A stretch of DNA of 64,000 bases, taken from the NCBI GenBank assembly GCA_048537945.1, contig CM108484.1:4210494-4274493 (forward strand), written 5' to 3'. This document shows positions 8,191 through 60,900 of the stretch, one piece after another. The translations under genes were made by a program, and so were the position numbers. Below the pieces are notes generated by a model. That model worked only from the letters and a program-made list of their open reading frames with translations, ran no database searches and was not told where the DNA came from. This DNA is from Mnemiopsis leidyi. Lineage: Eukaryota. How positions within the stretch are numbered: the stretch's first letter is position 1; each line of letters starts with the position of its first letter.

Positions 8191-10089
8191 TTCGCTAATT
8201 GTCTGACTTTGTCCGACCCTCATTCGAAGCGGAAAATAAAATGACGGGAGTGGAGAGGGTGCGCGCTGCTGTACAATTCGCTAAAATAAGCTTTTCGCAG
8301 CCACCTCTGGTGGCGCGCAGGACGCGCGCGAAAGGGCTATGGTTAGAGCAAATTCTTTTTAAGCTGTTACATGTTATGTCAACCCAATTTGGCTTTGCAT
8401 GCTTACCCTAAATTTCAAAAGTTTTGTCATTTTGCCCCGTTATCCAAATTTTATAGCATCGCTCCCCCATTTTCGTCCACACTTGGCCTTTGTTACTTAA
8501 GTTCCTCAGTCCCTTTTTTTTATTGGAGGGGACCGTAGACAGAGGGTCATGCAACCCCTGGTTAATCCTTTCAGAGTTTAACGGGGTTTATTGTTGGCTA
8601 CATGAAACCGCGGTGCCAGATACAAGATAGAGTCTGACTTATTTTGGTGTACCTTAGAGTGACAGGATTATGTCAATCTGCTGGCCAATCTGCCGAGATT
8701 ACCCTGCTCCACATATGATTTAACATATCATTCTGATTGGACTTATCCAGGTTATGTTAATTTTTCTGCGGACACTGATGCTGCCTCAAGGACAGACATA
8801 AGCTGTAGCGAAACTGTAAATAAGTAAATAAATAAATAAATTGTAAATAATAAATAATAAAACAATAATTTTTAATAAAACAATAATTTTTATTTTCGAC
8901 AGCAATCAAAATATAAAATATATCAATTCAATAGCACAGCTACAGTCGTCTACGTCTGCTGTACACCCCAAATGCAGTGTAGCAGAAGACGCGCGCAGCA
9001 CGAAGTGTAGCATAATTACTTGCTTCGGGGCCGCACGCGCGCGCAGCAAGCCGCGGGAGAAACGCTGCCGCCATAGACGCCTGGTCTGACGTAGCAGAAT
9101 GCTTCACCGGCGTCTCGAACCGCACATGCATGCAACCTCCTAAATTCAGAAAAATCATATCTTCACAGATATTAAGAAATCTGGCACCACACACCAGTTG
9201 AGTAAAAGAAAGTTTTCGATAATGTCGTGCTGGTGCTAAACGTAATTTATATCTTGTTGGTTTGGTTTTAACTTTCATTCATAACACTGCAATCAAACAA
9301 ACTTATACTTGCCCATCAGGAAGCATTCCTGGAAGCAAGAGCAGCTGATGCAAGGTAACCACTCTCGCTTACAAGAATGTGCAAAAGATTCAGTATAGTA
9401 AGCATTATGCAATAAATTTACAAGAATCGGAGAGAACAGCACTGAGCTTAGTAATTGTACATCCAATGGACAAGAGTAAAATGGTAAGTGTTCCCGATGG
9501 GCAAGCACTTGCCCTGCTCTCAGCCCGCATAATTGCCGACTTGCAGGCAGTGCAAGATAACGAGGACTATGCTTGCCCCGTCCCCAATAACTGTGGCAGG
9601 ATATTATTTCTCCCCTGCGTCATACTATAACCATTTCAAACTGGACCAGTTTATTCAAAAGTTTGGCAAGTACTTTACTGAGGCTCGACGGATGCACAGA
9701 TCCACAAATACCGCGGCCCGACAATAAAGGAAAAGGCTGTCGAAGGATGAAAACATTGTTCATTTTCTCTCACCCTATACCCTTCTCCCCTGCACGGTGA
9801 GTTCCGGGGTACCGTGAACCCGTGCAAACCTCGAGCTGGTATTATAGATTATTAAGATACGCTTTGGAATTTAACACAGTGGGAAGGGGACGGTAGCATA
9901 CAATCAATGGGCATTTTCATGTTTAGTCTAATTTCGGCGTTTTAAAACTAAAAGTTTTTCAAAGATAACAATCTGAAGTCCACATGAAGAAAAGTTCCGA
10001 AGAATCACACCGACAAGAATCGTATGGTCAGAGGATGTACAACACTTACGTGACGTTAACTTTGGATTTCATAATTGGGGAACTGAAGA

Positions 10090-10869: not shown

Positions 10870-13800
10870 CCCTAACCGGGCTGGCATCTAAGGGCCATCA
10901 AATATAATATAAATAGAGATCATACTTAAATTTTATTACATGGTAAGAAAGAGAAAAAATTTAATAAATCATGTGCAATATGAAACTGTAAAAGTGAAAG
11001 TGAAAATGAAAATGAAAAATGTAAAACTAAACACGGTTGCTTGAATTCAGCACAAAGATATCACTGCAATGAATAATAAATAAAAACGGTAAAAAAGGGT
11101 TCCCAATTATGTAGCTAAATTAAATCAATTGACCGCTAATCGTCAAAATCAGGCTCCTTGTAATTAATGTGGTTCTCTCTATTTCTACTGGAGCATCTTA
11201 GACCTTTTATGTTCTGTAAAGCATTGTTGCCGGCTTCCCATGAGTCTAAACTGCCTGCACTTTGTGCACTCAGTAAGACATCTGTAGCATGTTTTTTAAA
11301 AATATTAATTGAATGATAGGAAGATGGCGGAATCGAGTCTAATTTGAAAACAGAATTAAGCAGTAGGGGTCCCTTGTAAAATAGGGAATTTCTATAGACG
11401 GTCGTTCCATACGTGTTCAACCAGGCACTATCTTTTTCATGATTCATGTCGGACGGCAGCGGAATGTTACGGGGAAAGAGTTCCGCTATAGAATCGGGCA
11501 GTAAGGATTTAAAATTGTACAACTTGAACATGAAGATTGCAGCATTTTTAGCAATCATATTGTGTATTGTGAGTAAACCGAGATTACAGTAAGCGGCCTT
11601 TGTACTAGATGGAACAGTCTTATCTTCAGGGTTGAAAAAGTATCTTACGTGTCCAGGCATGATAGCACGGATTCCATTCTTTTGTTTTGTGAACAGTGAA
11701 TCGATGTTCGATTTGGCAGAAAAACCCCAGACTAAACTGCAATAATTTATATGGCTCTGTACAAAACTGTTGAATATAAGCATTCTAGCTTTTAGTGGTA
11801 GTAAGTGTTTGATTCTAAACATTATTCCTGTGTAGCGGCTTATTTTAGCTCGAAGAGCTACAATATGAGCACTCCATGTCAAACCTTCATCAATGATTAC
11901 ACCTAGGAACTTGGCTTCGCTTACGTGTTTTATCGGTGAGCCTTTAATTGCGAGATTAATTTCCTTATTAACGTTTTTCTTGCTAAAAACCATATAATTA
12001 GTCTTTTTAAGATTCAATAGTAGGCCATTTGCGTTTACCCATGATAAAATTTGTGTTGCCAGGCCTTCGACCTTGCCTTTGATTTCACACATGTCATTAC
12101 CAGTCACTATAATATTTGCATCATCTGCGTAGAGTATGAATTTAGCTGCCTTATCTATGTTTGGTAGGTCGTTGGTGTATATAACGAATAGCAGAGGTCC
12201 CAAGATACTGCCTTGTGGTACCCCATAGCGTATTTCTGTTGCGTTGGAGTCAGTACCATTGACACTCACAAATTGACTACGTCTGCTGAGGTAGGATCTA
12301 AGCCAGTCGTGTGCTGGACCTCTTATACCGTAGTGATATAACTTTTCAAGTAATATAGTGTGTTCAACCAGGTCGAAAGCTTTGGAAAAATCTATCATCA
12401 AGAGCAAGGCTACTTGGTTTTTGCTAATGGTGTCAAGCAGTTTACTATTAGCTGCAAGCAGTGCGTGTTCACATGACCTACCCGCTCTGAAACCAAATTG
12501 GTTTTTGTATAAGGTGTCATTTTCTTCCATGAATTTTACTATTCTGCAGTGCATAACTTTTTCGTAAATTTTAGAGAATGACGACAGCAGTGAGATAGGT
12601 CTGTAACATGTGACGTCAGTTTTACTTCCGCCCTTATGTATTGGGACAACTCTGGCACATTTAAGCTTGCTAGGAAAAATTCCCTCAGCCAGAGATGCTG
12701 ATACAATGTTTGACAACGTAATATTAAATTTTTCACTGCAGTTTGAGGCAATCTTTATTGCACTCACTTTAGTGTCGAGGGTGCTCTTGTTTTTCAGTTT
12801 ACGAATAATGGTAGCAATTTCATCGGGCCCTGCAGGACTAAGGTATATCGTATTAGCGTTAGATCGATCCATGAAAGAACCGTAGTTGTTGGAGGCATCC
12901 CCCCTGATGCCAGACTTAAGGTTACTAGCTATGTTTGAGAAATACGAGTTAAACTGTTCTGCGATGCCTATATTATCAGTAACACTTTCGCCATTTTCCC
13001 CAACAACTTTTTTTATGTCCGATGTTTTCTTCCCTCTATTTAATAGCTCATTAATAAGTCCCCATTGCTTTTTGGAGTTGTCTTTATGCTCCTCAAAAAT
13101 TTTTGCATAGTATCTTCTTTTGGATAAATTTACATGTTTTTCTGTGAATTTTTTCATTTTATCATACTTAACTTTATTTGCTGTTGTGTTATGTTTTATG
13201 AAGTCATGATATAAAAGTTGTTTACGGTGAATTGCGTCTTCAAGCCAGGGAAGTATCCATGGTTTTGGTTGTGCTCTCTCATGTCTCCTTCGCGCAGAAT
13301 TATTTTTACTAGGATAAGCAGATTCATAGTGCTTAGTGTATATGTCACAAAATTTATCATATTTTTCCTCGGCATCTAGATTATCGCCCATTTCCCAGGT
13401 TTCACCTTGTATCAGATTTTTAAAGTTTTCGTCGTTGGCCGAATTAAATACCCTATAGTTGCATGTATTTGAGTCTGCCATTCGATTTGCCGGCCTAACT
13501 GTCCTATCAAAGTTCTTATTGAGTGAAATTATTACGTTTGTCCCTAGATGATCAGTAATGTCCAGCGTTATGACGTTAGAGCTAACAACACTATTAGTTG
13601 AGTTAATATATATGTGGTCAATAAGCGTTGCACTGTGGTCAGTAACACGTGTGGGTCGCGAGATCACTTGTAGAAATCCGTGGCTGGCTGTTATTTCAAC
13701 AAGTTCCTGTCCATGGGAGTCATGGTCGTACTTGATAAGGTCAATGTTGTGATCACCAGTTAATACTAAAAGTTTGTTTTTATGTCTATTAAGCTTTCTT

Positions 13801-15290
13801 AACGCCTGTAAGTAAGTCTCAAGAAAGGTATTGGGACTGCGAGACGGGGATCTGTACACGTTAGTTACTATTACAGTACGATTGGTTTTTTTGAAATTTT
13901 CTATTCTTACAAATTGAAATTCACCATCAACTGAACTATTTATGTCCAAAATTAGGGGATGGATGTCATCGTGTGAACAGACCCGTTCGTGAACATAGAT
14001 TACTAAACCACCACCTTTTCCTGAAGGTCTGGCGGGGTCCTGTACTATTGGGGAGTGAAATCCGTCTAAGAGGATATCATCTATTCCGTTTGGTAATTTA
14101 CTAATTACACAGTTTGTTTCGTTAAGACATATAACGTCGAATTTTTGATAATTTTCAATGTCATCCGAAATTGTTTTGAGGTTCGAAGCTATAGAGCGAA
14201 TGTTCAGCGAGAGAACACTTACTTCATCACCCTTTGATGCCTTAATTGAACTAAGGGTTTTATAGGTACAGTTGATGAGGTTCTGTGATGCACTAGACCA
14301 AACTTCATTTTCAGCAGCTATTGTGTCGCTGGTTCCTATATTATTCATGAGGTTGAGCGGATGATAGGGGTTGAAAAAGGTGCTTGTGTTTGTGGGAAGT
14401 GAGGTACCGAAAAGTTCGCCTGTGTTGCTACAACTGTAACCAGGGATTGTTTCTTGGCAACATTGTAAGCACCCTAGGGTTTCTCTACTGCATTTCGGGT
14501 GATTGGGATTTTTGCAAAGTTGACAGTACACTACTTTCGATCTGCTATATGCGTAACTATTACAGCTATGGCAGCGTAACTTAAACGGCTTAGTGCTGTT
14601 ACGTGGTGAGACGTTTAAGAGTTTATGGTTTGACGATGTCAGTGTCTCACATGCCTCTATAGGTAAGATATCTTTAATACAAGCTTTGCAGATCCAGTCA
14701 TACCCCGAGTCAAATGATATCGCTGATGCCTCTAAACGTGATATGCCGTGACACTTTTGGTGCTTGGTTTCTCCGCAAATCCAGCATTTCAGATTTTGCC
14801 TATTTCTGGGGATACGTGTGGTACAATACTCGCATTCATTAGTACTTTTCCGTTGTTGCATTTGATGTTGAGGTTTAAGAGTTTAAGTGTGGTGAGATGT
14901 GAGAATCTGACAATACTGTTACTGTACTGGGAGATATTAAAGAAATAGATGTAAGCGTAGATTTAAAAATAATCGTAACCTGACTGACACTTGGCTCGAG
15001 CACTGATTTCAGTACTGTGTGGTTTAGATGTCAGTCTATATATAATAACCTATACACCTGCTATCCTTCAGTACCTGTACCTAGCTCCTATTTTTGCTTA
15101 TTCAAATTGGATAATAGAAAATCTCTATAGCAGAGAAAGTTTGCAGTAAAAAGATCTGTTACTATGTAAAGGGGTTCGTCTGCCTGTGTGTCATGGAAAA
15201 GAGACATGTTTGGGGGAGGGGGAGGGGGTATTTTTTGGTCGAAATTAGCTAAAGAGGTCTCTTTCACAACAATACAAAGATAAAAATGTT
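10860..15290 (-). mobile_element. Full-length non-LTR retrotransposon (LINE; CR1/L2-like clade suggested by microsatellite 3' tail, clade unresolved)
   Basis: Single intact 1241-aa ORF with Cys-rich N-terminus, APE endonuclease and RT domains. There is a (TCAA)n 3' tail, a ~400-bp 3'UTR and a ~400-670-bp 5'UTR. Exact ends are not determinable without copies. Confidence 0.75.
11136..14861 (-). CDS. LINE ORF2-type polyprotein: N-terminal Cys-rich/PHD-like zinc fingers, APE-type endonuclease, reverse transcriptase
   Basis: 1241 aa without stops. Zinc-finger-like CWICGETKHQKCHG...CKAC. EEP endonuclease motifs (LSLNIRS, ICLNETN). RT motifs FSKAFD and YADD (ILYADDANI). The C-terminal domain is conserved with the fragments at 16430-17771. 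Confidence 0.9.
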   Translation of the reverse strand: MQQRKSTNECEYCTTRIPRNRQNLKCWICGETKHQKCHGISRLEASAISFDSGYDWICKACIKDILPIEACETLTSSNHKLLNVSPRNSTKPFKLRCHSCNSYAYSRSKVVYCQLCKNPNHPKCSRETLGCLQCCQETIPGYSCSNTGELFGTSLPTNTSTFFNPYHPLNLMNNIGTSDTIAAENEVWSSASQNLINCTYKTLSSIKASKGDEVSVLSLNIRSIASNLKTISDDIENYQKFDVICLNETNCVISKLPNGIDDILLDGFHSPIVQDPARPSGKGGGLVIYVHERVCSHDDIHPLILDINSSVDGEFQFVRIENFKKTNRTVIVTNVYRSPSRSPNTFLETYLQALRKLNRHKNKLLVLTGDHNIDLIKYDHDSHGQELVEITASHGFLQVISRPTRVTDHSATLIDHIYINSTNSVVSSNVITLDITDHLGTNVIISLNKNFDRTVRPANRMADSNTCNYRVFNSANDENFKNLIQGETWEMGDNLDAEEKYDKFCDIYTKHYESAYPSKNNSARRRHERAQPKPWILPWLEDAIHRKQLLYHDFIKHNTTANKVKYDKMKKFTEKHVNLSKRRYYAKIFEEHKDNSKKQWGLINELLNRGKKTSDIKKVVGENGESVTDNIGIAEQFNSYFSNIASNLKSGIRGDASNNYGSFMDRSNANTIYLSPAGPDEIATIIRKLKNKSTLDTKVSAIKIASNCSEKFNITLSNIVSASLAEGIFPSKLKCARVVPIHKGGSKTDVTCYRPISLLSSFSKIYEKVMHCRIVKFMEENDTLYKNQFGFRAGRSCEHALLAANSKLLDTISKNQVALLLMIDFSKAFDLVEHTILLEKLYHYGIRGPAHDWLRSYLSRRSQFVSVNGTDSNATEIRYGVPQGSILGPLLFVIYTNDLPNIDKAAKFILYADDANIIVTGNDMCEIKGKVEGLATQILSWVNANGLLLNLKKTNYMVFSKKNVNKEINLAIKGSPIKHVSEAKFLGVIIDEGLTWSAHIVALRAKISRYTGIMFRIKHLLPLKARMLIFNSFVQSHINYCSLVWGFSAKSNIDSLFTKQKNGIRAIMPGHVRYFFNPEDKTVPSSTKAAYCNLGLLTIHNMIAKNAAIFMFKLYNFKSLLPDSIAELFPRNIPLPSDMNHEKDSAWLNTYGTTVYRNSLFYKGPLLLNSVFKLDSIPPSSYHSINIFKKHATDVLLSAQSAGSLDSWEAGNNALQNIKGLRCSSRNRENHINYKEPDFDD

Positions 15291-37887: not shown

Positions 37888-37981
37888 ATGAAGGGTGATA
37901 AGGGCATTGTGATATCGGGCCTTTCCGGCCGATTTCCAAACTCCAACAATGTGGATCAGTTCTGGGATAATTTGGTGGCAG
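37888..37981 (+). CDS. FASN: FAS exon 1 (start codon; KS N-terminus)
   Basis: [32 protein letters not shown] compares with human [29 protein letters not shown]. Donor G|gtacgt. Confidence 0.85.
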
Positions 37982-40900
37982 GTACGTCAGTTTTTCTGTC
38001 TGTAGATTTGTCTGTTCATTTATCTGTAAATCTGTCCGTAAATCTGTCCGTGAATATGTCTGTTTGTCAGCCTATATTATTTGCTATAGGTTTGTATAAG
38101 TTTGCCTGTTCGTCGGTTTTTCTGGAGAACTTATTTGTTTTATATGATCTTTGGGAGTCAGTTCCTTCACTGAGCCAACAGTGGAATTGCAAAATTCAAA
38201 CTCTGAAAAACCTGACAATCTCCATCACTGCATCAACCTCAGGTTCCGACATGATAACTTCTGAACCTAGAAGGTGGCCCGCTGGAATATTCGGACTGCC
38301 AGAAAGAGCCGGTCTTCTTCACGACATTTCCTCCTTCGACTCCTCCTTCTTCGGAGTTAGCGCCAAACAGGGACATCAGATGGATCCTCAACTTAGAGTC
38401 TTGCTAGAAGTTGCTTACGAGGCTATCCTTGATTCGGGTAATTACGCGAGTTCTCAAAAATTAGGACGTTGCCACTAAATTCTTTCTCCTTCTATTACTA
38501 CAAACTACAAGTGCTCACTGCTCGAAAAGAATTGTAAAGCTATAAATTTGAACACAACTACGTCTGGGGAAGCAATAAGTGTGAATTATAACGAATATAC
38601 CAATAATACCCCGACAGGATACCACCCAAGTGAGTTGAAAGGGAAGAAGATAGGAGTGTACGTGGGGGGTTCCTCCTCCGAGGCGTACGACGCTTGGACC
38701 ACTGACGCAGACAGTCAGACGGGGTACGGACTGCTGGGGTGCTGTAGGTGCATGTTGGCAAACAGAGTAGCCTTCACTTTCGACTTCAGAGGACCCAGCT
38801 ACACGCTAGATACTGCATGCAGCAGCTCCATGTTCGCTCTAGATGCTGCTCACAAGAGTGTGATGCTGGGAGAGTGTGACATGGCCCTGGTGGCGGGGGT
38901 GAACCTCCTTCTCAAACCTAACTGTTCCCTCGACTTTCATAGACTCTCCATGTTGTCACAAGATGGGTCTTGCAAGGTTGGTGGAGTCACCTTAAAACTT
39001 TAAAATTGAATTTGTAGATCTGAATCCGTGCATTAGTTGTTATCTGTATCAATCAGTAACTATGTATAGTAATTATAGTAACTATGTATATTAAGGTACA
39101 TATATATATTCACCCTCCATATATGGGTATATATATACACATTTGTCAGGTGTTTGATGAAGGAGCTAACGGTTACGTAAGAGCAGAGACAGTAGCTGCA
39201 GTAATGTTATGTAGAGAGAATCTCGCAAGGAGAGCGTACGCGAGGATACTGGGTACTCGGACCAATACTGACGGGTATGATCTCTTCTGGTGATTCTCGG
39301 TTTAACCGTATCAAATTTAATGGGAGCACTAATCAAGTCTTCCACGTTTTGGGGAAAGATTATTTGGGGAGGGGTTGCAAATTTGACAGAATTGGTTGCG
39401 GAGGAGGGCTCTCAAATCACATGTAAGAAGCGGGAGAAGTAATGATTAATATGGAATATCAGATTTCTGAAAATCTATTAAGGGGTCAGAAATTGGTGAA
39501 ACCCAGCCTCAATATCTCCAGGTACAAGACCGAGGGTATAACATACCCCAACCACGAGATACAAAGCGAACTGCTCAAGGATCTGTATCAGACTGCAGGG
39601 GTATCGCCTGATGATGTGTACTATTTGGAGATGCATGGGACCGGGACACAGGTACTATAGATTTACAGTGGGACACAGGTACTATAGATTTACTGTGGGA
39701 CACAGGTACTATAGATTTACTGTGGGACACAGGTACTATAGATTTACAGTGGGACACAGGTACTATAGATTTACAGTGAGACACAGGAACTATAGATTTA
39801 CAGTGAGACACAGGTACTATAGATTTACAGTGGGACACAGGTACTATAGATTTACTTTGGGACACAGGTACTATAGATTTACTGTGGGACAGAGGTACTA
39901 TAGATTTACTGTGGGACACAGGTACTATAGATTTACTGTGGGACACAGGTACTATAGATTTACAGTGGGACACAGGTACTATAGATTTACAGTGGGACAC
40001 AGGTACTATAGATTTACTTTGGGACACAGGTACTATAGATTTACTGTGGGACACAGGTACTATAGATTTACTTTGGGACACAGGTACTATAGATTTACTG
40101 TGGGACACAGGTGGTATAGATTTACTTTGGGACACAGGTACTTTAGATTTACTGTGGGACACAGGTACTATAGATTTACTGTGGGACACAGGTACTATAT
40201 ATTTACTGTGGGACACAGGTAGTATAGATTTACTGTGGGACACAGGTACTATAGATTTACAGTGGGACACAGGTACTATAGATTTACTGTGGGACACAGG
40301 TACTATAGATTTACTGTGGGACACAGGTACTATAGATTTACAGTGGGACACAGGTACTATAGATTTACAGTGAGACACAGGAACTATAGATTTACAGTGA
40401 GACACAGGTACTATAGATTTACAGTGGGACACAGGTACTATAGATTTACTTTGGGACACAGGTACTATAGATTTACTGTGGGACAGAGGTACTATAGATT
40501 TACTGTGGGACACAGGTACTATAGATTTACTGTGGGACACAGGTACTATAGATTTACAGTGGGACACAGGTACTATAGATTTACAGTGGGACACAGGTAC
40601 TATAGATTTACTTTGGGACACAGGTACTATAGATTTACTGTGGGACACAGGTACTATAGATTTACTTTGGGACACAGGTACTATAGATTTACTGTGGGAC
40701 ACAGGTGGTATAGATTTACTTTGGGACACAGGTACTTTAGATTTACTGTGGGACACAGGTACTATAGATTTACTGTGGGACACAGGTACTATATATTTAC
40801 TGTGGGACACAGGTAGTATAGATTTACTGTGGGACACAGGTACTATAGATTTACTGTGGGACACAGGTACTATATATTTACTGTGGGACACAGGTAGTAT

Positions 40901-43900
40901 AGATTTACTGTGGGACACAGGTACTATCGATTTACTGTGGGACACAGGTACTATAGATTTACAGTGGGACACAGGTACTATAGATTTACAGTGGGACACA
41001 GGTACTATAGATTTACTTTGGGACACAGGTACTATAGATTTACTGTGGGACACAGGTACTATAGATTTACTTTGGGACACAGGTACTATAGATTTACTGT
41101 GGGACACAGGTGGTATAGATTTACTTTGGGACACAGGTACTTTAGATTTACTGTGGGACACAGGTACTATAGATTTACTGTGGGACACAGGTACTATAGA
41201 TTTACAGTGAGACACAGGAACTATAGATTTACAGTGGGACACAGGTACTATAGATTTACTGTGGGACACAGGTACTATAGATTTACTGTGGGACACAGGT
41301 ACTATCGATTTACTGTGGGACACAGGTACTATAGATTTACTGTGGGACACAGGTACTATAGATTTACAGTGGGACACAGGTACTATAGATTTACAGTGGG
41401 ACACAGGTACTATAGATTTACTGTGGGACACAGGTACTATAGATTTACAGTGGGACACAGGTACTATAGATTTACAGTGGGACACAGGTACTATAGATTT
41501 ACTTTGGGACACAGGTACTATAGATTTACTGTGGGACACAGGTACTATAGATTTACTTTGGGACACAGGTACTATAGATTTACTGTGGGACACAGGTGGT
41601 ATAGATTTACTTTGGGACACAGGTACTTTAGATTTACTGTGGGACACAGGTACTATAGATTTACTGTGGGACACAGGTACTATATATTTACTGTGGGACA
41701 CAGGTAGTATAGATTTACTGTGGGACACAGGTACTATAGATTTACTGTGGGACACAGGTACTATAGATATACTGTGGGACACAGGTAGTATAGATTTACT
41801 GTGGGACACAGGTACTATAGATTTACTGTGGGACACAGGTACTATCGATTTACTGTGGGACACAGGTACTATAGATTTACTGTGGGACACAGGTACTATA
41901 GATTTACCGTGGTTTTACCGTGGTAACTTTCCTTAAGTAAATGCCTGACTCACAAACGTCAAAGCCAAAAATCGTATTAAAAAGAAAAAAAAGAAACAAC
42001 CAGCTCAAATCACATCCCCAGGCTGGAGACACACAAGAGATGATGGGGGTTGAGAAATACTTCCTGAAGGGGGGCACCCGCCCCAAACCCCTCTACGTGG
42101 GAAGTGTGAAGAGTAACATTGGGCACAGTGAGCCGAGTAGCGGGGTAGCCGCTCTCACCAAGATACTTCTCTCTTATCACTACAAGAAGATACCTGCCAA
42201 CATCAACTTTAATAAACCAAATCCTAAGGTTTGTTTTTGCAAACTTTATTTTATCTATTCGTTGCTAAATCTTCTTTTTTGAAAAAATAACCGTACAGTT
42301 CTAAATTTAAAACTTATTGTTTTTATATTGCGGGAGAAAAATCTCCCTAGCAAATTGTAGAGTGACAAATAGCGTTTACTGTACGGTCCAGAAACACAGT
42401 TGATATCTGGGTTGAGGTTATCCGTTATTCTCACTTTTTTCTTTGACTTGTAGCAACTGATATACAGTGTCTGCAGTTGCGGGTTTTGGTCGAATATGTG
42501 AAAGAATTAGTGAGCGCTTAAACAGATTGAATGGAGTATAAACCCTATTGCATCTGTTTTCTTCACTTCTCAAGTTCTTAGTGTTAGTCCATCATTAGGC
42601 TCGCTTCCACGTCGTCCATGTAGTACCCGTATCTCCGTATTTAACATCTAGCTGATTTTGATTTAGGTCTTCAAAATTTCAAGATTTACTCACTATCTGC
42701 GAAGACCTCAACCTCTGCCAATGATAAAACTGACGTACCACCCTGTATTTGAATACTTGATCCTTTAACTGTCAGATCAGAGAAATCATAAAGATAGGTT
42801 CCTGACTGGTACGTTATCGTGCCGATAAGCTCCGCCCCATCGTAGTTTCCTCCTGTTAAGCCAACTCCCACCCAGATCTTTACTCCGTTTATTCTTTGGG
42901 GTGCATCATATCTGTTGTACACCTGAAAGTTGGAAGCCACTACACAATGTTTATAATCATTTATTGTCTATTTCAGCAGCATAAGTTGGTTCTGCTGTAC
43001 CAATTTTCACCTGCGATAAAGGTATAAATTACTCAACGCTCTTCCTCAAATTCGCATTTTTTCGTAAAACATTTTCTTCTCGAAATTCTAGTGTTGAAGG
43101 CGACGAAATATTTAATGATCGAGTCTCTTACCGTAATTTGACAAATAGCACAAACTCTCGGCAGTGTTAGCAGCCACCAGGCTGCCGGTCCTCCAGTGAT
43201 TGTATGGCTGAAGTCAAATTCGTAATGCCTGTGAGTGTTCAAAATTATGATTTTGCCGTTTGCTTGATTTTAAGGTGCCTTTTCGGTAAATAATGTTAAT
43301 GAAAATAGCTGGAAGCAAATATGTAATCCTAGGTGGTTGCTCGATGATGCTACGTAATAATCATTTCGGGCCGGAATTCGTGGATGACTGGCTTAATCGC
43401 TAATGTTTAGATTTTAAAATAAATCGAATTTCTTGAAATCAGAATCAAACTGGAGTACCTTCCATGTTTTATTCCGTCGATAGCTCTGGCAGCACTTAAG
43501 GATATGTTCTTAATGGGATCAACATACGTGTCAGTTTGTGTTGCAGTGCCTTCACGAGCAATGTTTTTCTCGGTACAAGAAGCGTTTACTCTTCCTGCAT
43601 AGATCAAATCTTAGTTTTCCAGATATTGTCATCCAAATTTTGTTTAAAATCTAGACCCAAGTTTGACTACTACTATTGCTACTACCACTATGCGTTTAGC
43701 CTGGTGAACCTAATGGAAATCCTTGCTGTACGGCATGTTAAACAAGGAATGGAGCTAAGAAGTTCCATGCAGTCCAATCTTTAGTGCAACCTTAACATTG
43801 TAGATATGTTATCATTTTGATTGCATAGCTCACCTTGAAGACCGAGGAAGAGTAGTATCAAAAGTTTATACATTGTAAAATCAGGATTATCCATTTTTCC

Positions 43901-46900
43901 TCAAACAGGGGCTATGAGATGTGTATGTAACTTTCTTTCATTTCAGTTTGATAGTTATTATTATCAAACAAAAATTTTTATATAATTAGCTGGATTCAAA
44001 TTATTGGCAGGATTCAATGCACTCAGAAATAAAACACAATGTGTAAGATGGTGTGGCCATCAATACACTGAACTAAGACTAAAACACAATGAGTAAGATG
44101 GTGTGGTCATCAATACACTGAACTAAGACTAAAACAAAATGTGTAAGATGGTGTGGTCATCAATACACTGAACTAAGACTCAAACAAAATGTGTAAGATG
44201 GTGTGGCCATCAATACACTGAACAAAGACTAAAACACGATGTGTAAGATGGTGTGGTCATAAAGGCATTGCACTAAGAAACAAAGCAAAATGTGTAAGAT
44301 CATGTATAAACAATGCACTGTACCGATTAAGTGTTCGCACTTAACCTGATTCTCCGGCACACCGTGTTATAAATGCTTTGTTCCCATTTTAAAGTGGATA
44401 ATGATATGGAGAGAGCGGGAGAAGGACCGAGGGTCAGAGAGAAAGAGGGGAAGAAAGACAGAGGGACTGTAGGACAGAGCGAAAGATGGTCAGATGAACA
44501 AAGGGAAAGGGAGACTGATTGACAGACTGACAGAGGAAGACAGAAGGGGATGACGTAGGTAGTCATCTACGCACTACAAAGCGATAAGTAGGCCGTACAG
44601 AAAAATAGAGAAATTGAAATTGAAACTCATAGCCGACGCTTGAAGGCACTATTTGGAGCCCCAAGGTAAATTCCTTATCATCGGAATCACGATCGGAGAG
44701 CATGAAACAACAATTTAAAGTTCATAATATTGCAACTTTTTCTATTATAGATCACATGACTTTGGCTTTAGATCAAATGACTGATGGTGGTAGCAATTGC
44801 TTTAGATTACTGGACTCTTTTTCGGGACCTAAACTCGGCGCTTCCTCTTTTGAATACACTGGTCGAGTACCGTCAGAAAATTGATTTCATATCTAAGGTA
44901 AGGTATCAGGTAATTCTTCCTAGATCCTGTGTTATCGGTTGTAATCCTTGGCCGAACGCAAATAAGCTTATTTCTGGGTCAGCCAGGTGGAGAGAGCGCT
45001 GTTTTCACTCTCAACATCCAGATCGAGATGTTAGAGATTCGTCTCTGAAGTATCTGACCTGTCTTATCATACCCTTCTGGTGAGTCACTCAAATCAGGGA
45101 ATTTCAAAGGGTCACTCACCTTTATCAGTAAATGGTACATATACTTCAACTTCTGCTAAACTTAGATAATCCGCGCCACCTTGAATTTGAACACTGGATC
45201 CACTAGCGTGGAGGTTAGAGAAGACATATGGGTTGGTTCCTGACTGGTACGTTATCGTGCCGATAAGCTCCGCCCCATCGTAGTTTCCTCCTGTTAAGCC
45301 AACTCCCACCCAGATCTTTACTCCGCTTAATCTTTGGGGTTGTAAGATTCTGTTGAACACCTGAAAGTGAGATCTGTACAATATATTACGTCGTGATTCG
45401 TTATTACCATTAATTAATGGTCACATACTGAATGTCTGACGCTGTTTCTTTGTTTGTATTGGACGTGGTTATAGTTGGAGGATGGAGGGGGAGGGACGTG
45501 GTAATAGTTGGAGGATGGAGGGGAGGGACGTGGTAACAGTTGGAGCATGGAGGGAGGAAGGAGGTGGTAATAGTTGCAGGATGGAAGGGGAGGGACGTGG
45601 TAATAGTTGGAGGATGGAGGAGGAAGGAGGGGGTTATAGTTGGAAAATGGAGGGAGGAAGGAGGTGGTAATAATTTGAGGACTGAGGGGGTGGGAGGTGG
45701 TAATAGTTGGAGGATGGAAGAGGAAGGAGGTGGTAATAGTTGGAGGATTAGAGGGGGTGGGAGGTGGTAATAGTTGGAGCATGGAGGGGGAGGGACGTGG
45801 TAATAGTTGGAAGATGAAGGGAGGAAGGAGGTGGTAATAGTTGGAGGATGGAAGGGGAAGGATGTGGTAATAGTTGGAAGATGGAGGGAGAGGGAGGAGG
45901 AAAGTGGTAATAGACGCAGGATGGAGGGAGGAAGGAGGTGGTTATAGTTGGAGCATGGAGGGAGGAAGGAGGTGGTAATAATTTGAGGACTGAGGGGGTG
46001 GGAGGTGGTAATAGTTGGAGGATGGAGGAGGAAGGAGGTGGTAATAGTTGGAGGATAGAGGGGGTGGGAGGTGGTAATAGTTGGAGCATGGAGGGGGAGG
46101 GAGGTGGTAATAGTTGGAGCATGGAGGGAGAGGGAGGTGGTAATATTTGAAAGATGGAGGGAGGAGGAAAGTGGTAATAGACGCAGGATGGAGGGAGGAA
46201 GGAGGTGGTTATAGTTGGAGCATGGAGGGAGGAAGGAAGTGGTAATAATTGGAGGACTGAGGGGGTGGGAGGTGGTAATAGTTGGAGGATGCAGGAGGAA
46301 GGAGGTGGTAATAGTTGGGGGATAGAGGGGGTTGGAGGTGGCATTAGTTGGAGGATAGAGGGGGTGGGAGGTGGTAATAGTTGGAGCATGGAGGGGGAGG
46401 GAGGTGGTAATAGTTGGAGCATGGAGGGAGAGGGAGGTGGTAATATTTGGAAGATGGAGGGAGGAGGAAAGTGGTAATAGACGCAGGATGGAGGGAGGAA
46501 GGAGGTGGTTATAGTTGGAGCATGGAGGGAGGAAGGAAGTGGTAATAATTGGAGGACTGAGGGGGTGGGAGGTGGTAATAGTTGGAGGATGCAGGAGGAA
46601 GGAGGTGGTAATAGTTGGGGGATAGAGGGGGTTGGAGGTGGCATTAGTTGGAGGATAGAGGGGGTGGGAGGTGTTAATAGTTGGAGCATGGAGGGGGTGG
46701 GAGGTGGTAATAGTTGGAGCATGGAGGGAGGAGGAACGTGGTAATAGTTGGAGGTGGATGGGGAAGGAGGTGGACAGGTGGTTATAGTTGGAGGATGGAG
46801 GATAGAGGGGGCGTGGTAATAGTTGGAGGATGGAGGGAGGAAGGTGGTGTTATGGTTGGAGGATAGAGGGGGTGGGAGGTGGTAATAGTTGGAGGATGGA

Positions 46901-48902
46901 AGCGGAGGGACGTGGTTATAGTTGGAGCACGGAGGGGGGAGGGACGTGGTAATAGTTGGAAGATAGATGGAGGAAGGAGGTGGTAATAGTTGGAGGATAG
47001 AGGGGGAAGGACGTGGTAATAGTTGGAGGATGGAGGGGGAAGGACGTGGTCATAGTTGGAGGATGGAGGGGGAGGGACGTGGTAATAGTTGGAGGATAGA
47101 GGGGGTGGGAGGTGGTAATAGTTGGACGATAGAGGGGGTGGGAGGTGGTAATAGTTGAAAGACGGAGGGAGGAGGAACGTGGTAATAGTTGCAGGATGGA
47201 GGGTGGAAGGAGGTGGTTATAGTTGAAGGATGGAGGGGGCGTGGTAATAGTTGCAGGATGGAGGGGGACGGACGTGGTAATAGTTGGACGATGGAGGGAG
47301 GAAGGTGGTGTTATAGTTGGCGGATGGAGGGGGAAGGACGTGGTAATAGTTGGTGGATGGAGGGGGAAGGACGTGGTAATAGTTGGAGGATGGAGGGGGA
47401 AAGACGTGGTCATAGTTGGAGGATGGAGGGGGAGGGACGTGGTAATAGTTGGAGTATAGAGAGGGAGGGACGTGGTTATAGTTGGAGGATGGAGGGGGAG
47501 GGACGTGGTAATGGTTGGAGGATTGCGGGGAGGGAGGTGGTAATAGTTGGAAGATGGAAGCGGAGGGACGTGGTAATAGTTGGATGATGGATGGAGGAAG
47601 GAGGTGGTAATAGTTGGAGGATAGAGGGGGTGGGAGGTGGTAATAGTTGGAGCATGGAGGGGGAGGGACGTGGTACTAATAGTTGGAGGATAGATGGAGG
47701 AAGGAGGTGGTAATAGTTAGAGGATGGAAGGGGAAGGAAATGGTAATAGTTGGAGGATGGAGGAGGGGAGAGGTGGTTATAGTTGGAGGATGGAGGAGGA
47801 AGGAGGTGGTAATAGTTGGAGGATTGAGGGGAGGGACATGGTAATAGTTTGAGGATGGAAGGGCAGGGAAGTGGTAATAGTTGGAGCATGGAGGGAGGAA
47901 TGAGGTGGTAATAGTTGGAGCATGGAGGGAGGAATGAGGTGGTAATATTTGGAGGATGGAAGGTGAGGGACGTGGTAATAGCTGGAGGATGGAGGAGGAA
48001 GGAGGGGGTTATAGTTGGAGCATAGGGGAGGGAAGGAGGTGGTAATAATTTGAGGACTGAGGGGGTGGGAGGTGGTAATAGTTGGAGGATAGAGGATTAG
48101 AGGAGGTGGGAGGCGGTAATAGCTGGAGGATGGAGAGGGAAGAAGGTGATAATGGTTGGTGGATGGAGGGAGGAAGGAGGTGGTTATATTTAGAGGATGG
48201 AGGAGGAACTGAAGAAGGGAGCATGGAGTATGTGTGGAGGGAGTGTGATTAACCGGCTGGAGGTCAGGGCCCATGCTACCTAGCTAGATATCATGGATAT
48301 AAGGGATTAAGGGATGCTCATTTACAATACAACCTTTTCGCTTCGTCAAATTCGCTGGGTTGGCATAGATTTTCGTTTTTTTGTCTTGATTTGGGAGTTT
48401 TTGTTTTGTTTTTTGTGCTATTGTGTCTAGGAAGAAGTTGATACGAGACTCCTAAAAAGTTTTAAAGAACGGATAAACAAAAAAAATCGCGACACCAAAA
48501 TTGTTGGTTTGGTATTGGTTTACTGGTAAACGACCCCCATGAGTTTTTGCTACTCTTCAATAAAATTCTATTTTGTACCTTAATTTGACGGATAGGGTAA
48601 ACTGTCGGTAGTGTGAGTAGCCACCAAGCAGTTGATCCTGTCGTTTTTGTATGGGTAAAATCCACTTCTCCATTTATATCTCTGAGACAATTGGATGCTT
48701 TACTTTCAGCCGATTTAAACTCAACAGACCGATTTTGCTAAAGGCATTGATGAAGGTTAACGATTAGCGATTGAAATTAATTGCCATAGCAGTTAGAAAT
48801 GTTCGCTTTTTATTTGACCGGCTCACAGATTTACCTATGCTATATAAAAAATACAAATCGTAATGAAGTCAAAATTATCTTTCATACTATTATTATTAAC
48901 CT

Positions 48903-51900: not shown

Positions 51901-54900
51901 AAGAAGCTAGGAAGTGGACAGGATATATGCGAGTCTACTTGTGGTGTGAGCTAAGCAGCTGATAATAAAACAGGTAAACCTAAATTCGCGTGACGAAACT
52001 CCTCCAGCTAAGGTTTAGAAGAAGCGGACAATTATATGGCGGGGCTGTAAAGTGTTCATCGTCGTGAACTACCCTTAAAATAGCACGTGTGTGAAATGGT
52101 ATGGTGGATAATGTGAATGAGCCGATAAATTGTTCCTGATTCAGTGATTTGCTGAAACTTCAATGAGCAGTTAGACGTTTGTTCTCCCCTCAACTGGAGT
52201 AGAGAGGCGCTCCATTAGCATTTAGCACTTCATGCTCGGTTAACCGGCTTAGTATTACATCATTGCTATAGATTGGAACATATAGGGGTTACAATGTTTG
52301 GCATTGCTATTGCTATGGGTGGTAAGGTATAGAAGATTATGATGTTTTACAATAGCTATTGCTATAGTTGGGTCGGTAAGACTAAGAATACGTTGAGGTT
52401 TGACTCAAAAGAGAAAGCCTGGGAACAAAGCCGAAAGTTATTGCATACAACAGAGATAACAGGCGGGTTGAAATTAAATTATCAAGTCTAATAAATTATT
52501 CGGGGCGATCGTTTGCGGCACCTACTCCACACAAGTAAGCAATGATTGGACTTCCGTCTTCCGATAGGGTGCAATTAATGTTTTAGTTAAACTTGAACGT
52601 TTTTATTCATCCTTTCAGCTGACGCCAATAATAGACGGAAGAGTGGTGCCAGTGACGTCACACTTAGAGTTAAGATCAGGGGATATCATCGGGATCAACT
52701 CATTCGGTTTTGGAGGAGCCAACGCACATGTCATTCTACAGGTAGGCTGAGTATATTGAATTTAGCATTTCATCCAAAAATCGATAGAGTTAGTGTTTTT
52801 TTGTGAACGCATCAGCTGAAATTTATTTCGATATCTGTGATTTTGCTGCTTTACTCAAGTTAAAAACTTGGACAAAGGGAACAAATAATATATTATAGTA
52901 TTCTCCATTATTAACATAAGAGCTAAGGTATCAGTTTTAACACTCCCTGACTGAGGACTACAAATATTCCCAGGGTGTATCCGGGGACGAGCCGAGACCT
53001 GTAAACTCTGAAATACCCATGTTGGTTCCGTACTACAACAGAAAAGCCGAGCAAACACAGTCGGCCTTGTGTCAGATACGAGATGAACATGTCACACATG
53101 ATAAACTCAGCTACCTTCACATGATAGCGCAAGTAAGGATACTTAATTAACTATATCATTTATCTATATCATTTATCTAAATGGTAGAGCTCTCTAGAAA
53201 TGTTTATTCAAGTGTGAATCTCACCTTTGAATCAGGATGTTCAGAAGGATTTTCAAACAAAAATACAGATGACCCTCCTGATCCATTATCATAGTAAACG
53301 TGATTATCATAGTAGAAATTAGGAATTTTCTATATTATGTATAAGACGATTAACCCGTTCGCCCCCGAGGTCGATATATATACCCGCTCTAGCGACTAAT
53401 ATTGTGCCATATCTATTTGTCATAGAATCAATTTCTTTAGTGAGTTCGCTTTTAAAAACTCAGTTCTATCCATGACAACACTCATTTTGAAAAAAGAAAT
53501 AGTTTTTTCGATAATTACATTAATTAATTAATAAAATAATTATTTAATTATTTTAAATTGCGCATAAATATTGCTCATGAACTAATTTCTCAAAATCATC
53601 TCGGGACCATGTACAGCGATGCTTTAGCAAATATGGAATCATGCAAACTGTTTGGTTGTGGATAAAATGTATCCACAATGAGTCGTTAAAGTGCGGGTAT
53701 ATATATCGACCTCGGGGGTTCGCCGGGGGAAGTCGAATTATTTTGAGGAAAAATCCATTTATATGCCATGGTAATCCGTTTTAGTGCAAATTTGATAGCT
53801 TGTTTCATTATTTAGGTTGTTTCCAACAAAAGTTTGTGGAAAAATTCTAACTATCCTTGCGACTTCTCAAGTAAAGTATAGCAGGTCGATAAATCGACCC
53901 TGGGATATGAGAGATGTGAATAGTCTAGACCATAATGTAAAAGTATTTGCAAGTTTAGCTACACGTGTGAAACTTATTAGAATTGCTTTTCAAGGTGTAT
54001 AGAACCGATGTTGACCAGTTAACAATCCACCTGGGGTGGGGAGGGTGCCCAAATGACCACACCCTATTGTGCATATCCCCGTCACGGCCCTCAATAATCC
54101 TGCTGAAATAAACATCGCAGCATACGGATCTGGCCTTATTCATGGCAAAGTGAAAGACCGTGTGACTCTCCATCAGCAAAGAAAAAGTTGGGAAAAGCTT
54201 GGTCTGGGATTTTGCAATGAGGTCACTCAATAATTAGAATGGGTCTCTTGCCGGCAAATATGGGTCTCTTGCCGGCCTAAAAACGGCCGATAGCCGGCTG
54301 ACATCAGGCCTGTAGCTGGCCTATATCAGACTGGCTATATAGGCCGTTTACAGGTCCGATATAGGCAGGCTATTGGCCATTAAAAGGCCTTTTATTGGCC
54401 TTATATGGGCCTTGTATCGCCCTTACAGGCCTTGTATTGGCCTTGCATCGGCCATTCGACCGACTAAAGGTCGGAACTAATCTCCCAATCTGCCCTTTTG
54501 CCAACTTGCAGAAATGCCTTGACAAAACAGATTCCAGCTACCGAACTTTCGGAACTGGGGAACTGTCGATGCAAAACAAGTTTACACCGTGCATAATGTG
54601 CATCAATTATAGTCCTGAATAGTTTTTGGCAAATCAAGCCTTCTTCTAGTCTCCTGGTAATCCTCAAAGCGTGATTAAAACCGTACTTTAGTATCATGTC
54701 CACAGAAACGTCCCATCTGTGACGGCAAATGCTAAATTATGTGATGTTTTATCCTTTCAAGTGTCTTCTGAGGATGTGAGAAGCACAAGGAAGCCTCGCA
54801 TCAAGAGCAATCGCTGTTTGTCATATTAGAATGAAAAAATATTAAGATACAGTTGTAAGAAAGTGAAAATAGCAAGGCAGAGTAGGTAGAGAGCTTTTAT

Positions 54901-57900: not shown

Positions 57901-60900
57901 CGTAGTACTCGCAGTACACATAGTATGGTATTATAGTAGAACAAGCTCTAAGTTTCTTTACAGTGCTCGTAGCATAGTTGCATAGGAGGCTAGTTAGTTT
58001 GTTTTATTGAAGTTTGGGAAAGTGCCGTTTTTGTTTAAGACATAGTAAGTTTATTGAAATCTTTCAAACTTATTAATGCAAAGTTTCACAGTCGGCATAA
58101 CACCTGGATATTAAAATCTGTGATAGAAATTTCGTAAAAATAGTTCACAAGTAATTTATATGGATTGAAGCAAAATCAAATCTTTACAATTCAAAGTATG
58201 GAAAGAATGTCATCCGAACCACATGAATAGCCCACATAACTGCAGGATTCAGTAACAATCTCCGGTGACAAAGAGAAAGTTCTGGAACTAGTACAGAAGC
58301 TGACTGACGAAGGAGTGTTTGCCAAGGCGGTAAACTCGTGTGGAGTTGCCTTCCACTCACCCAGTCTCGCAACAGTTGGTCCTCAGCTGGAGGCCTGTTT
58401 GAAACCCATCATACCCTCACCTAAACTCAGATCGAAGGGTAAGTAAGCTTGAGAATTAGTTTTGTTTTTTGTGTTGATCAGGTTGTAGTGCTAGAAGGAC
58501 AGAAATTCCTGACTTGGATGTCGCAACAGATAAAGATATAAAAACTTGATGTTCATGTTAATGTTCCGATAAAGGATTTCTCTGATTTCGGATTGGACAT
58601 ATTTCCAGCAACTTCAAACATTTGACACAGAATGTAGAGCAGGATTATCAAATGAGTTTCTTGGAGTGACATAGTTGTTGCTGTCCACGCTCCTCAGCCT
58701 ATTCCTAACATTAACACTGGACACAGACCCAGGCTGGATGATAGGCTTACCTGGTTTCACCAGCCCGCCCATCACCCAGTCCCGGAAACTCTGCATCCGG
58801 CTGAAGTAGACTATCGGACTAAGATACGCGCTCAGAACAACAGTTTGTACAGCGGATATGTTCCAAGTGTAAAACATCATGAAAGTGTTCCGATAGCGAG
58901 GTGAACTGTTCTCCTTCATGTTGTCGTAGTCTGCTATCCAGAGTAACATGTTGATACACTGGGGCAGGTTACAAATCAGGAATATTCCTGTTACGATCAT
59001 GATTGTCACTGAGGCTTGTTTCTTAGTGGACTGTTGTCCGTTAGGGACCAAATCACTCTTTCTCAGTTTGTAGACCGAGCTGATGAAGCTGATGATGATA
59101 AGAAATGTCGGTAAACCAATCTCTATTTCGTACAGTTGATCGTCTATTTTCCCGTAAATCTGGTTAGGACCCAGATCTTCATAGCAAAACACATCATGGT
59201 CGTTATACACGTGTATTTGCTCCGATCGTAGGGCGGCGTTCTGTAGGATAATGAACAACAAGTACGCTCTGAAGGACCAAACTATAGCTTCCCTATACAG
59301 CACTGTAAACGGGAAACATATAGCAATAGCTCTAGACAAACTGAGCAACAAAACAAGGAATATCGCTGACACCTGAAGACCTCTAAACAGAATCCTCCAC
59401 CCGATACAGAAGTACTGGTTCCCAAACAAGACGGGCTCACGTGCACTCCACATAGATACCATGACGGGGAGGTGAGCTAGGCACGTGACCAGATCCACCA
59501 CACAGATACGGCGGTAGATCTGGGTGGGTATGTCCCGGCCTTTACAGAGGACACAGAAGTAGTAGAGAGAGATGATGTTAGCAGGAACCCCCAGGATGAG
59601 TCCTAGGAGGAGGTTGAGAGAGAGGATCTTGTCGAGGGTGAGCACCATGTCAGGGATCGGGGTAGTTGATACGTTCTCCATGGTGCAGATCTGTTAGGGG
59701 GCGGGGGTTATTTGAATATTTGAGTTGAGTTAGGTTAATGGTCACTGGAGAAGTTATCGTATTTGATTAATTTACGTGAAAGTAATATAGTGAGCATATT
59801 TGATTGAGATTTGTCATGCATTATTTAGTTACTGTCGGGCTTGTGAAAGGGTAAAATGTTGGAAGTATCGGAGTTGAGTTGATCAAAATTTAAAAGAATC
59901 GTGATTTATCGGAAATTGTCATTTTACGGTAATCAACAAATATATTTACGAACAGCAAATAATGAATGTATCGGATATTTTTTGGAACATCTATTTTTGA
60001 AGGGAACAGGTAATTTTTGAAAATGCCTTCACTTGGTAAATAAATGAAAATAATGAAATGAAACAATTTAGAAAATCGATACCCTCCAATATTTGCAATG
60101 AAATATAGAATAGCTAGACACAACGAGATTCTGGTTAGAAAGTTCACGTAAACTTCCAGACACTCTTTTATCGATAAGCTCAAAGAGGAGAACTCGCGAT
60201 GAAAACTTTTGATGGTCTGGAAGGAATTGAATTCCATTTAATTTGACTGAAATTCTAGCAACAAAGAGGTCCTTTAAGAAAAAATACCGAAGATGATTTG
60301 TCGTAATTAATGCTAGAAAAATTCTCTGGTTTCTTGTCTGGTAACTCCCAACGGTGAAGCTAAGAGAAAAGGGGCAAATAAAAGAACAGATTGAACAACG
60401 GAATGAAAAACCATGGGTTATCGGTTTTTCGAGAATCAAACTGATAAACATTTCCAGCTATATAGGAAGTTTAGACAAAAGATGGCCAAGAAAACTTTCG
60501 CTGTGCACTGCAACATTGAAAATGAAACACAAATTTGAATTAAGGAAATAAAGAATAAATTTTAAATCCGGGAAATTGGTAGATCACCGGCTACTAAACG
60601 ACTACAACTTTGATAGCCGGCTATAAGCCGGCATAAAGCCGGTCAGTAGCCGCTTCCATTGGTTGTTGAGCGACGGTCATAAGCCGGCCATAAGCCGTTT
60701 AGGTATCAAAATTGTGGTTATAAGCCGGCTGTAAGCCGGCCATAAGAAATTCATTCAATAACACGGTAATGAGCGATAGTCGGGGGCCGGCTATAAGAAA
60801 TTCTATGGAAACGGCCATTAGCCGGTTATAAGCCGGCTATAAGCCGTTAAGGTATTCAAAGTTGTTATAAGCCGGTTATAAGATATTGACTCAATATCAT

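Follow-up and report, generated by a model that had tools for sequence, protein, structure and literature searches.

A 27-bp minisatellite of about 84 units spans the exon 5/intron 5 boundary of a fatty acid synthase gene in Mnemiopsis leidyi

How one 5' splice site is selected when its competitors are identical is a classic problem, for which the best natural models have been human genes with 5 to 26 reiterated donors. In intron 7 (IVS7) of human F7, a 37-bp variable number tandem repeat of 5 to 9 copies has its first monomer lying across the boundary of exon 7 (Borensztajn et al. 2006, PMC1557585). Experiments with 50 constructs showed that its pseudo-sites are functional and never compete with the most upstream donor; secondary structure offered no explanation of this choice, and an oriented 5'-to-3' scanning was proposed (PMC1557585). 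Similar repeats are found in IFI6 (6-16), where the exon 2/intron 2 boundary is followed by 25 pseudo-sites, the first two of which are also used; in IVS13 of CBS, with 15 to 20 repeats and two pseudo-sites in use; and in LMNB2 (100 bp, 10 to 15 copies) and PDGF intron 4 (81 bp, 16 to 18 copies), in which the authentic donor alone is reported to be used (PMC1557585). Here, we describe a 27-bp minisatellite of 84 units at the exon 5/intron 5 boundary of a fatty acid synthase (FAS) gene of Mnemiopsis leidyi. The gene lies on the plus strand of a stretch of 64,000 nt (assembly GCA_048537945.1, contig CM108484.1, positions 4,210,494 to 4,274,493), here referred to as the window, and positions are given in its coordinates.

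We consider it probable that the array originated in place and that the gene copes with it by position. A 27-bp segment straddling the boundary would have been tandemly duplicated in a functional FAS gene, and slippage together with unequal exchange would then have enlarged the array to ~84 copies, so that the intron, ancestrally ~129 nt long, came to measure 2,370 nt. The most upstream donor, the sole one joined to the body of exon 5, would yield the productive FAS mRNA, most likely chosen by its position through exon definition or 5'-to-3' cotranscriptional commitment, as in F7 intron 7. A transcript spliced at a downstream donor would gain 27n nt and meet an in-frame TAG at once, and nonsense-mediated decay (NMD) would be expected to eliminate it.

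The array and the gene that carries it

Tandem Repeats Finder (TRF), run on the window, called the minisatellite as one array only, with a period of 27, 84.1 copies, 94% matches, 0% indels, a score of 4036, and the consensus GGGACACAGGTACTATAGATTTACTGT. Cut into 27-mers from 39643, it resolves into 84 units in perfect register, with 13 sequence variants and no indels. The 24-nt core of the unit occurs 84 times in the window, always within the array, compared with 0 occurrences expected from 100 dinucleotide-preserving shuffles. Each unit corresponds to the 9 nt at the end of coding exon 5 plus the 18 nt at the start of intron 5. Thus, unit 1 begins with GGGACACAG, the final 9 nt of the exon (which ends at 39651), encoding GTQ of the ketosynthase (KS) motif HGTGTQ, and continues with GTACTATAGATTTACWGT. 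We placed the start of the array at GGGACACAG because the sequence immediately upstream (...GAGATGCATGGGACC) is unlike the end of a unit. An earlier note on this DNA had proposed both this composition and some 84 donor copies at the start of the intron, and the unit map and the TRF call agree with it in this assembly.

At the 3' edge, the last unit differs from the others in carrying a CpG (ACCGT), while interior units have ACTGT, ACAGT, or ACTTT (41884 to 41923). This distribution would fit an edge unit that kept the ancestral state and a loss of the CpG by decay that spread across the rest of the array. Next to this edge lies an 11-bp direct repeat (TTTACCGTGG), and the unit and the 3' flank both begin with GG, which gives the duplication junction 2 bp of microhomology. 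An origin by slippage at microhomology would be compatible with both features.

A comparison of the array with itself at increasing lags gave an exact 618-bp self-match at a lag of 594 bp, equivalent to 22 units. Units 1 to 22 are the same as units 23 to 44, so that the unit string ABBAACDEBFBAAEBEBGHBIJ is present twice, and the identity continues for 24 bp beyond. A shorter block (AAEBEBGHB..) is present four times, the distances between its copies being irregular (22, 15, and 18 units). The higher-order period of ~23 units (621 to 624 bp), seen at least three times according to the earlier note, was not recovered, a lag of 23 units being no better than background; what we found instead is one exact duplication of 22 units together with irregular partial blocks. 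This structure indicates recent unequal exchange or replication slippage, and the recent expansion by unequal crossover that had been deduced from the 23-unit period stands in this broader form, based on the exact 618-bp duplication.

The FAS array has three structural features of the F7 type, namely, units of at least 10 bp repeated in tandem where the intron begins, a first monomer lying across the boundary, and the reiteration of an identical donor. With respect to copy-number polymorphism, a further trait of this type, edges of the array are present in other samples, and the last unit of L002 differs (CGG/GT). It is an extreme, unusually large example of the F7 IVS7 class. The view that an exon-intron boundary is an unusual seed for a minisatellite was therefore overstated, this class having been described in F7, IFI6, CBS, LMNB2, and PDGF (PMC1557585). 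As in F7, the first monomer lies over the boundary, the pseudo-donors are identical, and most pseudo-sites would break the frame if used. However, the F7 unit takes 4 nt from the exon and 33 nt from the intron and is present in 5 to 9 copies, versus 9 nt plus 18 nt and 84 copies in FAS; the neighboring introns of the FAS host gene are short (~150 to 260 nt); and donor use was measured in F7, while here we infer it. LMNB2 and PDGF are also junction spanning, although with longer units and fewer copies, and all of them are mammalian. IFI6 and CBS share with FAS a donor-reiterating junction minisatellite with tens of pseudo-sites, but the two nearest ones are constitutively used there, whereas in FAS all extensions hit a TAG and no alternative protein isoform is possible. 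The IFI6 unit is 12 nt long, and its insertions are in frame.

Regarding the host gene, coding exons were placed via blocks conserved with an ortholog (L001) and numbered from the exon with the ATG at 37888 (Table 1). Exons 1 to 6, once spliced, give an open coding sequence of 370 codons with canonical GT-AG introns, and the product contains the KS catalytic motifs DTACSSS, HGTGT, and KSNIGH and matches the Pfam families ketoacyl-synt (2.9e-72), Ketoacyl-synt_C (5.6e-33), and KAsynt_C_assoc. The exons of the acyltransferase (AT) at 57.3 to 58.4 kb are open as well, with GHSVGE and AFHS, making this a KS-AT megasynthase gene. Among relatives of solved structure, the best are human, mouse, and pig FAS (483 to 496 bits), with far higher scores than the Elysia polyketide synthases (PKSs) EcPKS1/2 (350 to 357 bits), which suggests that the product is nearer to bona fide FAS than to the animal FAS-like PKSs. 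Human FAS is the best match in PDB, with 496 bits and an alignment that is gapless across the exon 5/exon 6 join (HGTGTKVGDPQEL in human). The likeness to the KS-MAT part of human FASN (PDB 3hhd) comprises a KS aligned end to end, the Cys/His/His motifs, and AT exons that follow, with the difference that only the KS-AT part of this gene is within the window; a downstream set of DH-ER-KR-ACP-TE domains would fall beyond the window or at its edge. The motifs, Pfam families, and score against human FAS all bear out the identification as FAS made in the earlier note.

Table 1. Positions of the FAS exons, intron 5, and the junction minisatellite in the window (a slash marks a splice junction)
Feature	Position	Strand	Basis or remark
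Exon 1	37888-37981	+	L001 blocks, GT-AG
Exon 2	38243-38437	+	L001 blocks, GT-AG
Exon 3	38618-38976	+	L001 blocks, GT-AG
Exon 4	39150-39274	+	L001 blocks, GT-AG
Coding exon 5, 130 nt	39522-39651	+	Acceptor ctccag/GTACAAG, donor CAG/gtacta; Pfam Ketoacyl-synt_C
27-bp minisatellite, 84 units	39643-41912	+	TRF, unit map, 84 matches versus 0 expected, donor census
Exact higher-order duplication (39643-40260 = 40237-40854)	39643-40854	+	Lag self-comparison, unit string
Authentic 5' splice site CAG/GTACTA, cleavage after 39651	39649-39657	+	Same intron position in L001 and L007; gapless human FAS junction
Intron 5, 2,370 nt (2,261 nt of array plus 109 nt of unique tail, ...catccccag)	39652-42021	+	
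Last unit, variant ACCGT	41884-41910	+	Read from sequence, unit map; same edge in L002 and L008
Short direct repeat at the 3' edge (GATTTACCGTGG / TTTTACCGTGG)	41901-41923	+	Read from sequence
Coding exon 6, 207 nt (...KSNIGHSE...NPK)	42022-42228	+	82% identical to L001 exon, 98.5% to L002/L003
Exon 7	starts at 52619	+	L001 blocks, GT-AG

Over exons 1 to 6, the gene and the ortholog L001 share 97% amino acid and 84.5% nucleotide identity, with a synonymous divergence (dS) of ~1.3 and a ratio of nonsynonymous to synonymous divergence (dN/dS) of 0.015; exon 5 is 87.8% identical to the ortholog exon. To judge from these values, we are dealing with a functional, strongly constrained FAS, which implies that productive splicing from the first donor takes place.

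The earlier note had called for a comparison with orthologous introns. In L001 and in L007 (74% amino acid identity, exon 6 fragment P0024), an intron is found at the same codon as intron 5, with a length of 150 nt and a start of CAG/gtaata in the former and ~110 nt and CAG/gtaaca in the latter, and neither contains the 27-mer. Intron 5 without its array would measure 129 nt. Copies of the unit outside the array were found neither elsewhere in the window nor in metagenome contigs of the Joint Genome Institute (JGI). Because the orthologs lack the array, no other copies turned up in the window or the JGI contigs, and conserved codons make up 9 of the 27 nt of the unit, the array would have arisen in situ and not by insertion from a satellite family. 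In a more distant relative, L004, there is no intron here, and the HGTGTQ/AGD region is read straight through. The FAS homolog of L004/L005 (81 to 750; an 83%-identical relative) has no introns at the positions of introns 4 and 5 of the window; its one intron here lies 13 codons before the HGTGTQ/AGD site (...KPEE/VYYLEMHG...). The placement of introns in this portion of the KS domain thus differs among relatives, by loss and gain or by sliding.

Donor choice among identical sites

A census of the donors showed that GT is retained in 81 of the 84 units (GA in 3) and that the 9-mer CAG/GTACTA is identical to the authentic donor in 66. Behind the authentic donor, there are 80 decoys with GT, 65 of them identical over the 9-mer. 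Exon 5 ends in phase 0 (...CAT GGG ACC GGG ACA CAG = HGTGTQ), and reading through from it meets TAG as the third codon (GTA CTA TAG); an in-frame stop is present in 77 of the 84 periods. The frame is open from the first donor only, any later donor adding 27n nt with GTA CTA TAG, so that the in-frame TAG predicted for extensions from any downstream copy could be read directly. When the first donor is joined to the acceptor at 42021/42022 (...GGGACACAG/GCTGGAGAC), the product reads HGTGTQ/AGDTQEM, which is gapless compared to human FAS and corresponds to the intronless read-through of L004. This agrees with the claim that a productive mRNA needs the first donor. That exon 5 ends inside the first repeat unit, as had also been proposed, is fixed by the intron positions of the orthologs and by the gapless FAS alignment.

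Given the identity of the competing sites, RNA structure was considered as a possible discriminator and rejected. In the predicted structure, the local accessibility of the donor 9-mers was low for all of them, the authentic site coming 19th of 84, and the minimum free energy fold of the first units showed inter-unit pairing only. As in F7, predicted RNA secondary structure does not account for the donor choice. The authentic donor differs from the decoys only upstream of -9 (the body of the exon, with its acceptor 130 nt away) and in the order of transcription. On this model, the 27 nt of the unit would be unable to single out the first donor, and position would be its only distinguishing feature. 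By analogy with F7, we regard use of the first donor as most likely in this gene.

Several points weigh against this view. Under intron definition, plausible with neighboring introns of 173 to 261 nt, the last decoy could compete, since its distance to the acceptor (129 nt) equals that of an intron free of the array and thus recreates the ancestral 129-nt intron. Some leakage to the decoys is likely by comparison with IFI6 and CBS, where the first two pseudo-sites are used (PMC1557585). The decoy donors show no sign of purging (GT was lost in 3 of 83), which fits neutrality without being a proof of it. Moreover, the copy number of 84 and the exact duplication at a lag of 594 bp rest on one assembly. 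Finally, when 5.8 billion proteins were searched with the peptide of exons 4 to 6, single-exon genomic fragments were the only matches, and neither a transcript-derived protein spanning these exons nor a spliced product was found.

The alternative that survives best, although we consider it unlikely, is that the array acts as a throttle on splicing, by unproductive splicing or as a detained intron. Decoy donors or intron retention would then affect a substantial share of the transcripts, generating RNAs with premature termination codons that are degraded by NMD, and the length of the array would tune FAS output. The abundance of decoys (80 with GT, 65 identical over the 9-mer), an authentic donor no more accessible than they are, and a last decoy that restores the ancestral 129-nt geometry would all favor such a role, as would the constitutive use of the nearest pseudo-sites in IFI6 and CBS (PMC1557585). 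However, pseudo-sites of identical sequence are entirely unused in F7, a dN/dS of 0.015 argues against tolerance of a heavy loss of product, and the orthologs lack the array, so it is not a conserved regulatory device.

Considerably less probable is a self-correcting or recursive splicing, in which each CAG/GTACTA could function as a 3' as well as a 5' splice site and the removal of 27n nt would regenerate the junction. An error at a downstream donor could then be repaired by resplicing donor 1 to the retained CAG, which would restore the proper joining of exons 5 and 6. Long introns of Drosophila and vertebrates are known to contain recursive splice sites (ratchet points), where an AG/GT regenerates the 5' splice site at each step, and they need a strong polypyrimidine tract and a branch point upstream of the AG. 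The FAS unit resembles them in its CAG/GTACTA form, with the last 9 nt of the exon ending in CAG and followed by GT, and each unit has a branch-like TTTAC of the yUnAy type. As an acceptor, however, it is poor. The fraction of pyrimidines at -20 to -4 is 0.41, below all six real acceptors of the gene (0.53 to 0.82), there is a GGG at -9 to -7, and just 13 nt separate the AG from the closest branch-like A. The unit thus lacks the combination of strong polypyrimidine tract and branch point before AG/GT that characterizes recursive sites.

Assembly, integrity of the gene, and coding potential of the repeat

A repeat collapsed or misjoined in the assembly, with exon 5 not actually abutting it, was among the outcomes by which the earlier note would have been refuted. 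A contig from another read set, L006 (Logan ERR15996608), 99.8% identical to the window, runs from exons 3 to 5 into unit 1 and up to the GGG of unit 2, where it ends. At the other side, L008 (Logan ERR15996620) starts with TACTGT/GGGACACAGGTACTATAGATTTACCGT/GGTTTTACCG..., exactly the 3' edge of the window, and L002, a metagenome scaffold from the European Nucleotide Archive (ENA) that is locally ~97 to 98% identical, starts in the end of a unit and continues through the last unit (in a CGG/GT variant) into the unique 3' flank. Both boundaries of the array exist outside this assembly, and hence, there is no misjoin. The contigs of other samples break inside the repeat, as expected for short reads, and an exact look-up of the two array-spanning open reading frames (ORFs) found no second array-spanning assembly or gene product on record.

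We therefore regard as very improbable that the array is an artefact, that is, a repeat collapsed, expanded, or misjoined by the assembler, with exon 5 not truly abutting 84 copies. No other assembly spans it, and the exact 618-bp internal duplicate could in principle be an assembler error; against this, the junctions from exon 5 to units 1 and 2 and from the last units to the flank are reproduced in these three contigs, and 13 ordered unit variants without indels are typical of a real array.

Even more remote is the chance that the locus is a decaying pseudogene or a null allele, in which the choice of donor would be irrelevant. An insertion of 2.3 kb of decoy donors at a splice site could inactivate a gene, but the exons examined are all open, the KS and AT motifs (GHSVGE and AFHS) are intact, dN/dS is 0.015, and several samples show the edge of the array together with an intact exon 6.

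Finally, the repeat as a minus-strand protein, or as a dispersed satellite or transposable element inserted here, can practically be dismissed. The mechanical ORF of 771 aa (39575 to 41890, minus strand, SHSKSIVPV repeats) that would suggest a protein follows automatically from a stop-free unit of 27 bp (9 codons), a period that leaves two frames of the array open; neither this ORF nor that of 203 aa (39611 to 40222, plus strand, GHRYYRFTV repeats) has a Pfam family or a match on record elsewhere, and we rejected the former as a gene, considering it a by-product of the period. A dispersed origin was rejected on the lack of other copies in the window and in the JGI contigs and on the 9 of 27 nt that are conserved HGTGTQ codons.

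A second junction array, other features, and what the locus offers

The ortholog L001 has an independent junction-spanning minisatellite (8222 to 8698) in the same FAS gene, at the exon 1/intron 1 boundary. TRF gave a period of 63, 8.0 copies, and 88% matches; the unit consists of 28 nt of exon and ~35 nt of intron, providing eight identical GCAG/GTTTG donors 55 to 63 bp apart. Splicing at the second donor would lengthen the product by 63 nt, in frame and free of stops. The matching place in the window contains only a TGTC-rich low-complexity stretch (37995 to 38063), and no junction arrays were found in the smaller relatives L004 and L007. Introns 1 to 5 measure 261, 180, 173, 247, and 2,370 nt in the window and 629, 172, 199, 176, and 150 nt in L001; in each species, only one of these five introns is enlarged, and it is the intron that bears such an array.

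Both loci are rich in minisatellites, and chance is a reasonable explanation for two junction arrays in one gene (a rough, post hoc estimate, not computed, is of the order of 0.02 for both events). The coincidence hints that such arrays are well tolerated, or favored, in this lineage. That junction-spanning minisatellites are recurrent here, and perhaps mechanistically favored, is an idea to which we attach little weight. If 5' splice sites were indeed preferred seeds of duplication, for instance via transcription- or splicing-associated DNA damage, this would amount to a new mutational bias.

Other features accompany the FAS gene. Intron 6 (10.4 kb) contains a second very large minisatellite (45461 to 48207), with a G-rich unit of 33 bp (GGAGGTGGTAATAGTTGGAGGATGGAGGGGGAG) repeated 82 times according to TRF, a higher-order period of 267 bp, and donor-like AG/GTGGTA and TG/GTAATA in each unit. 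Upstream of FAS, on the minus strand (11139 to 14882), an uninterrupted ORF of 1,248 aa with Exo_endo_phos and RVT_1 looks like an intact retrotransposon of the long interspersed nuclear element (LINE) type. Just past the AT exons and antisense to FAS (58617 to 59693, minus strand), there is an intronless ORF of 359 aa with a 7tm_1 match (5.6e-09), corresponding to a rhodopsin-family seven-transmembrane protein, which may be nested in a FAS intron. The FAS neighbor in L001 is a 7tm_1/LDL-receptor-A gene.

The array itself is without demonstrated function, and beyond the question of splice-site choice, it is a curiosity that related species lack and for which there is no evidence of function. 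Its interest lies in that question, since the authentic donor is followed by ~80 decoys in an enzyme gene under high constraint, and the neighboring introns in this animal are short. Over 2.2 kb, a rule of the first donor and an expectation of the donor nearest to the acceptor make opposite predictions, and the locus bears on the extension of the F7 rule to invertebrates and to arrays ten times longer. An unusually strict first-donor rule of the spliceosome of these animals, or a repair of errors by resplicing within the array, would likewise be new, although we also attach little weight to it; in this case as in that of a mutational bias, the gene would be an extreme natural assay of 5' splice-site choice.

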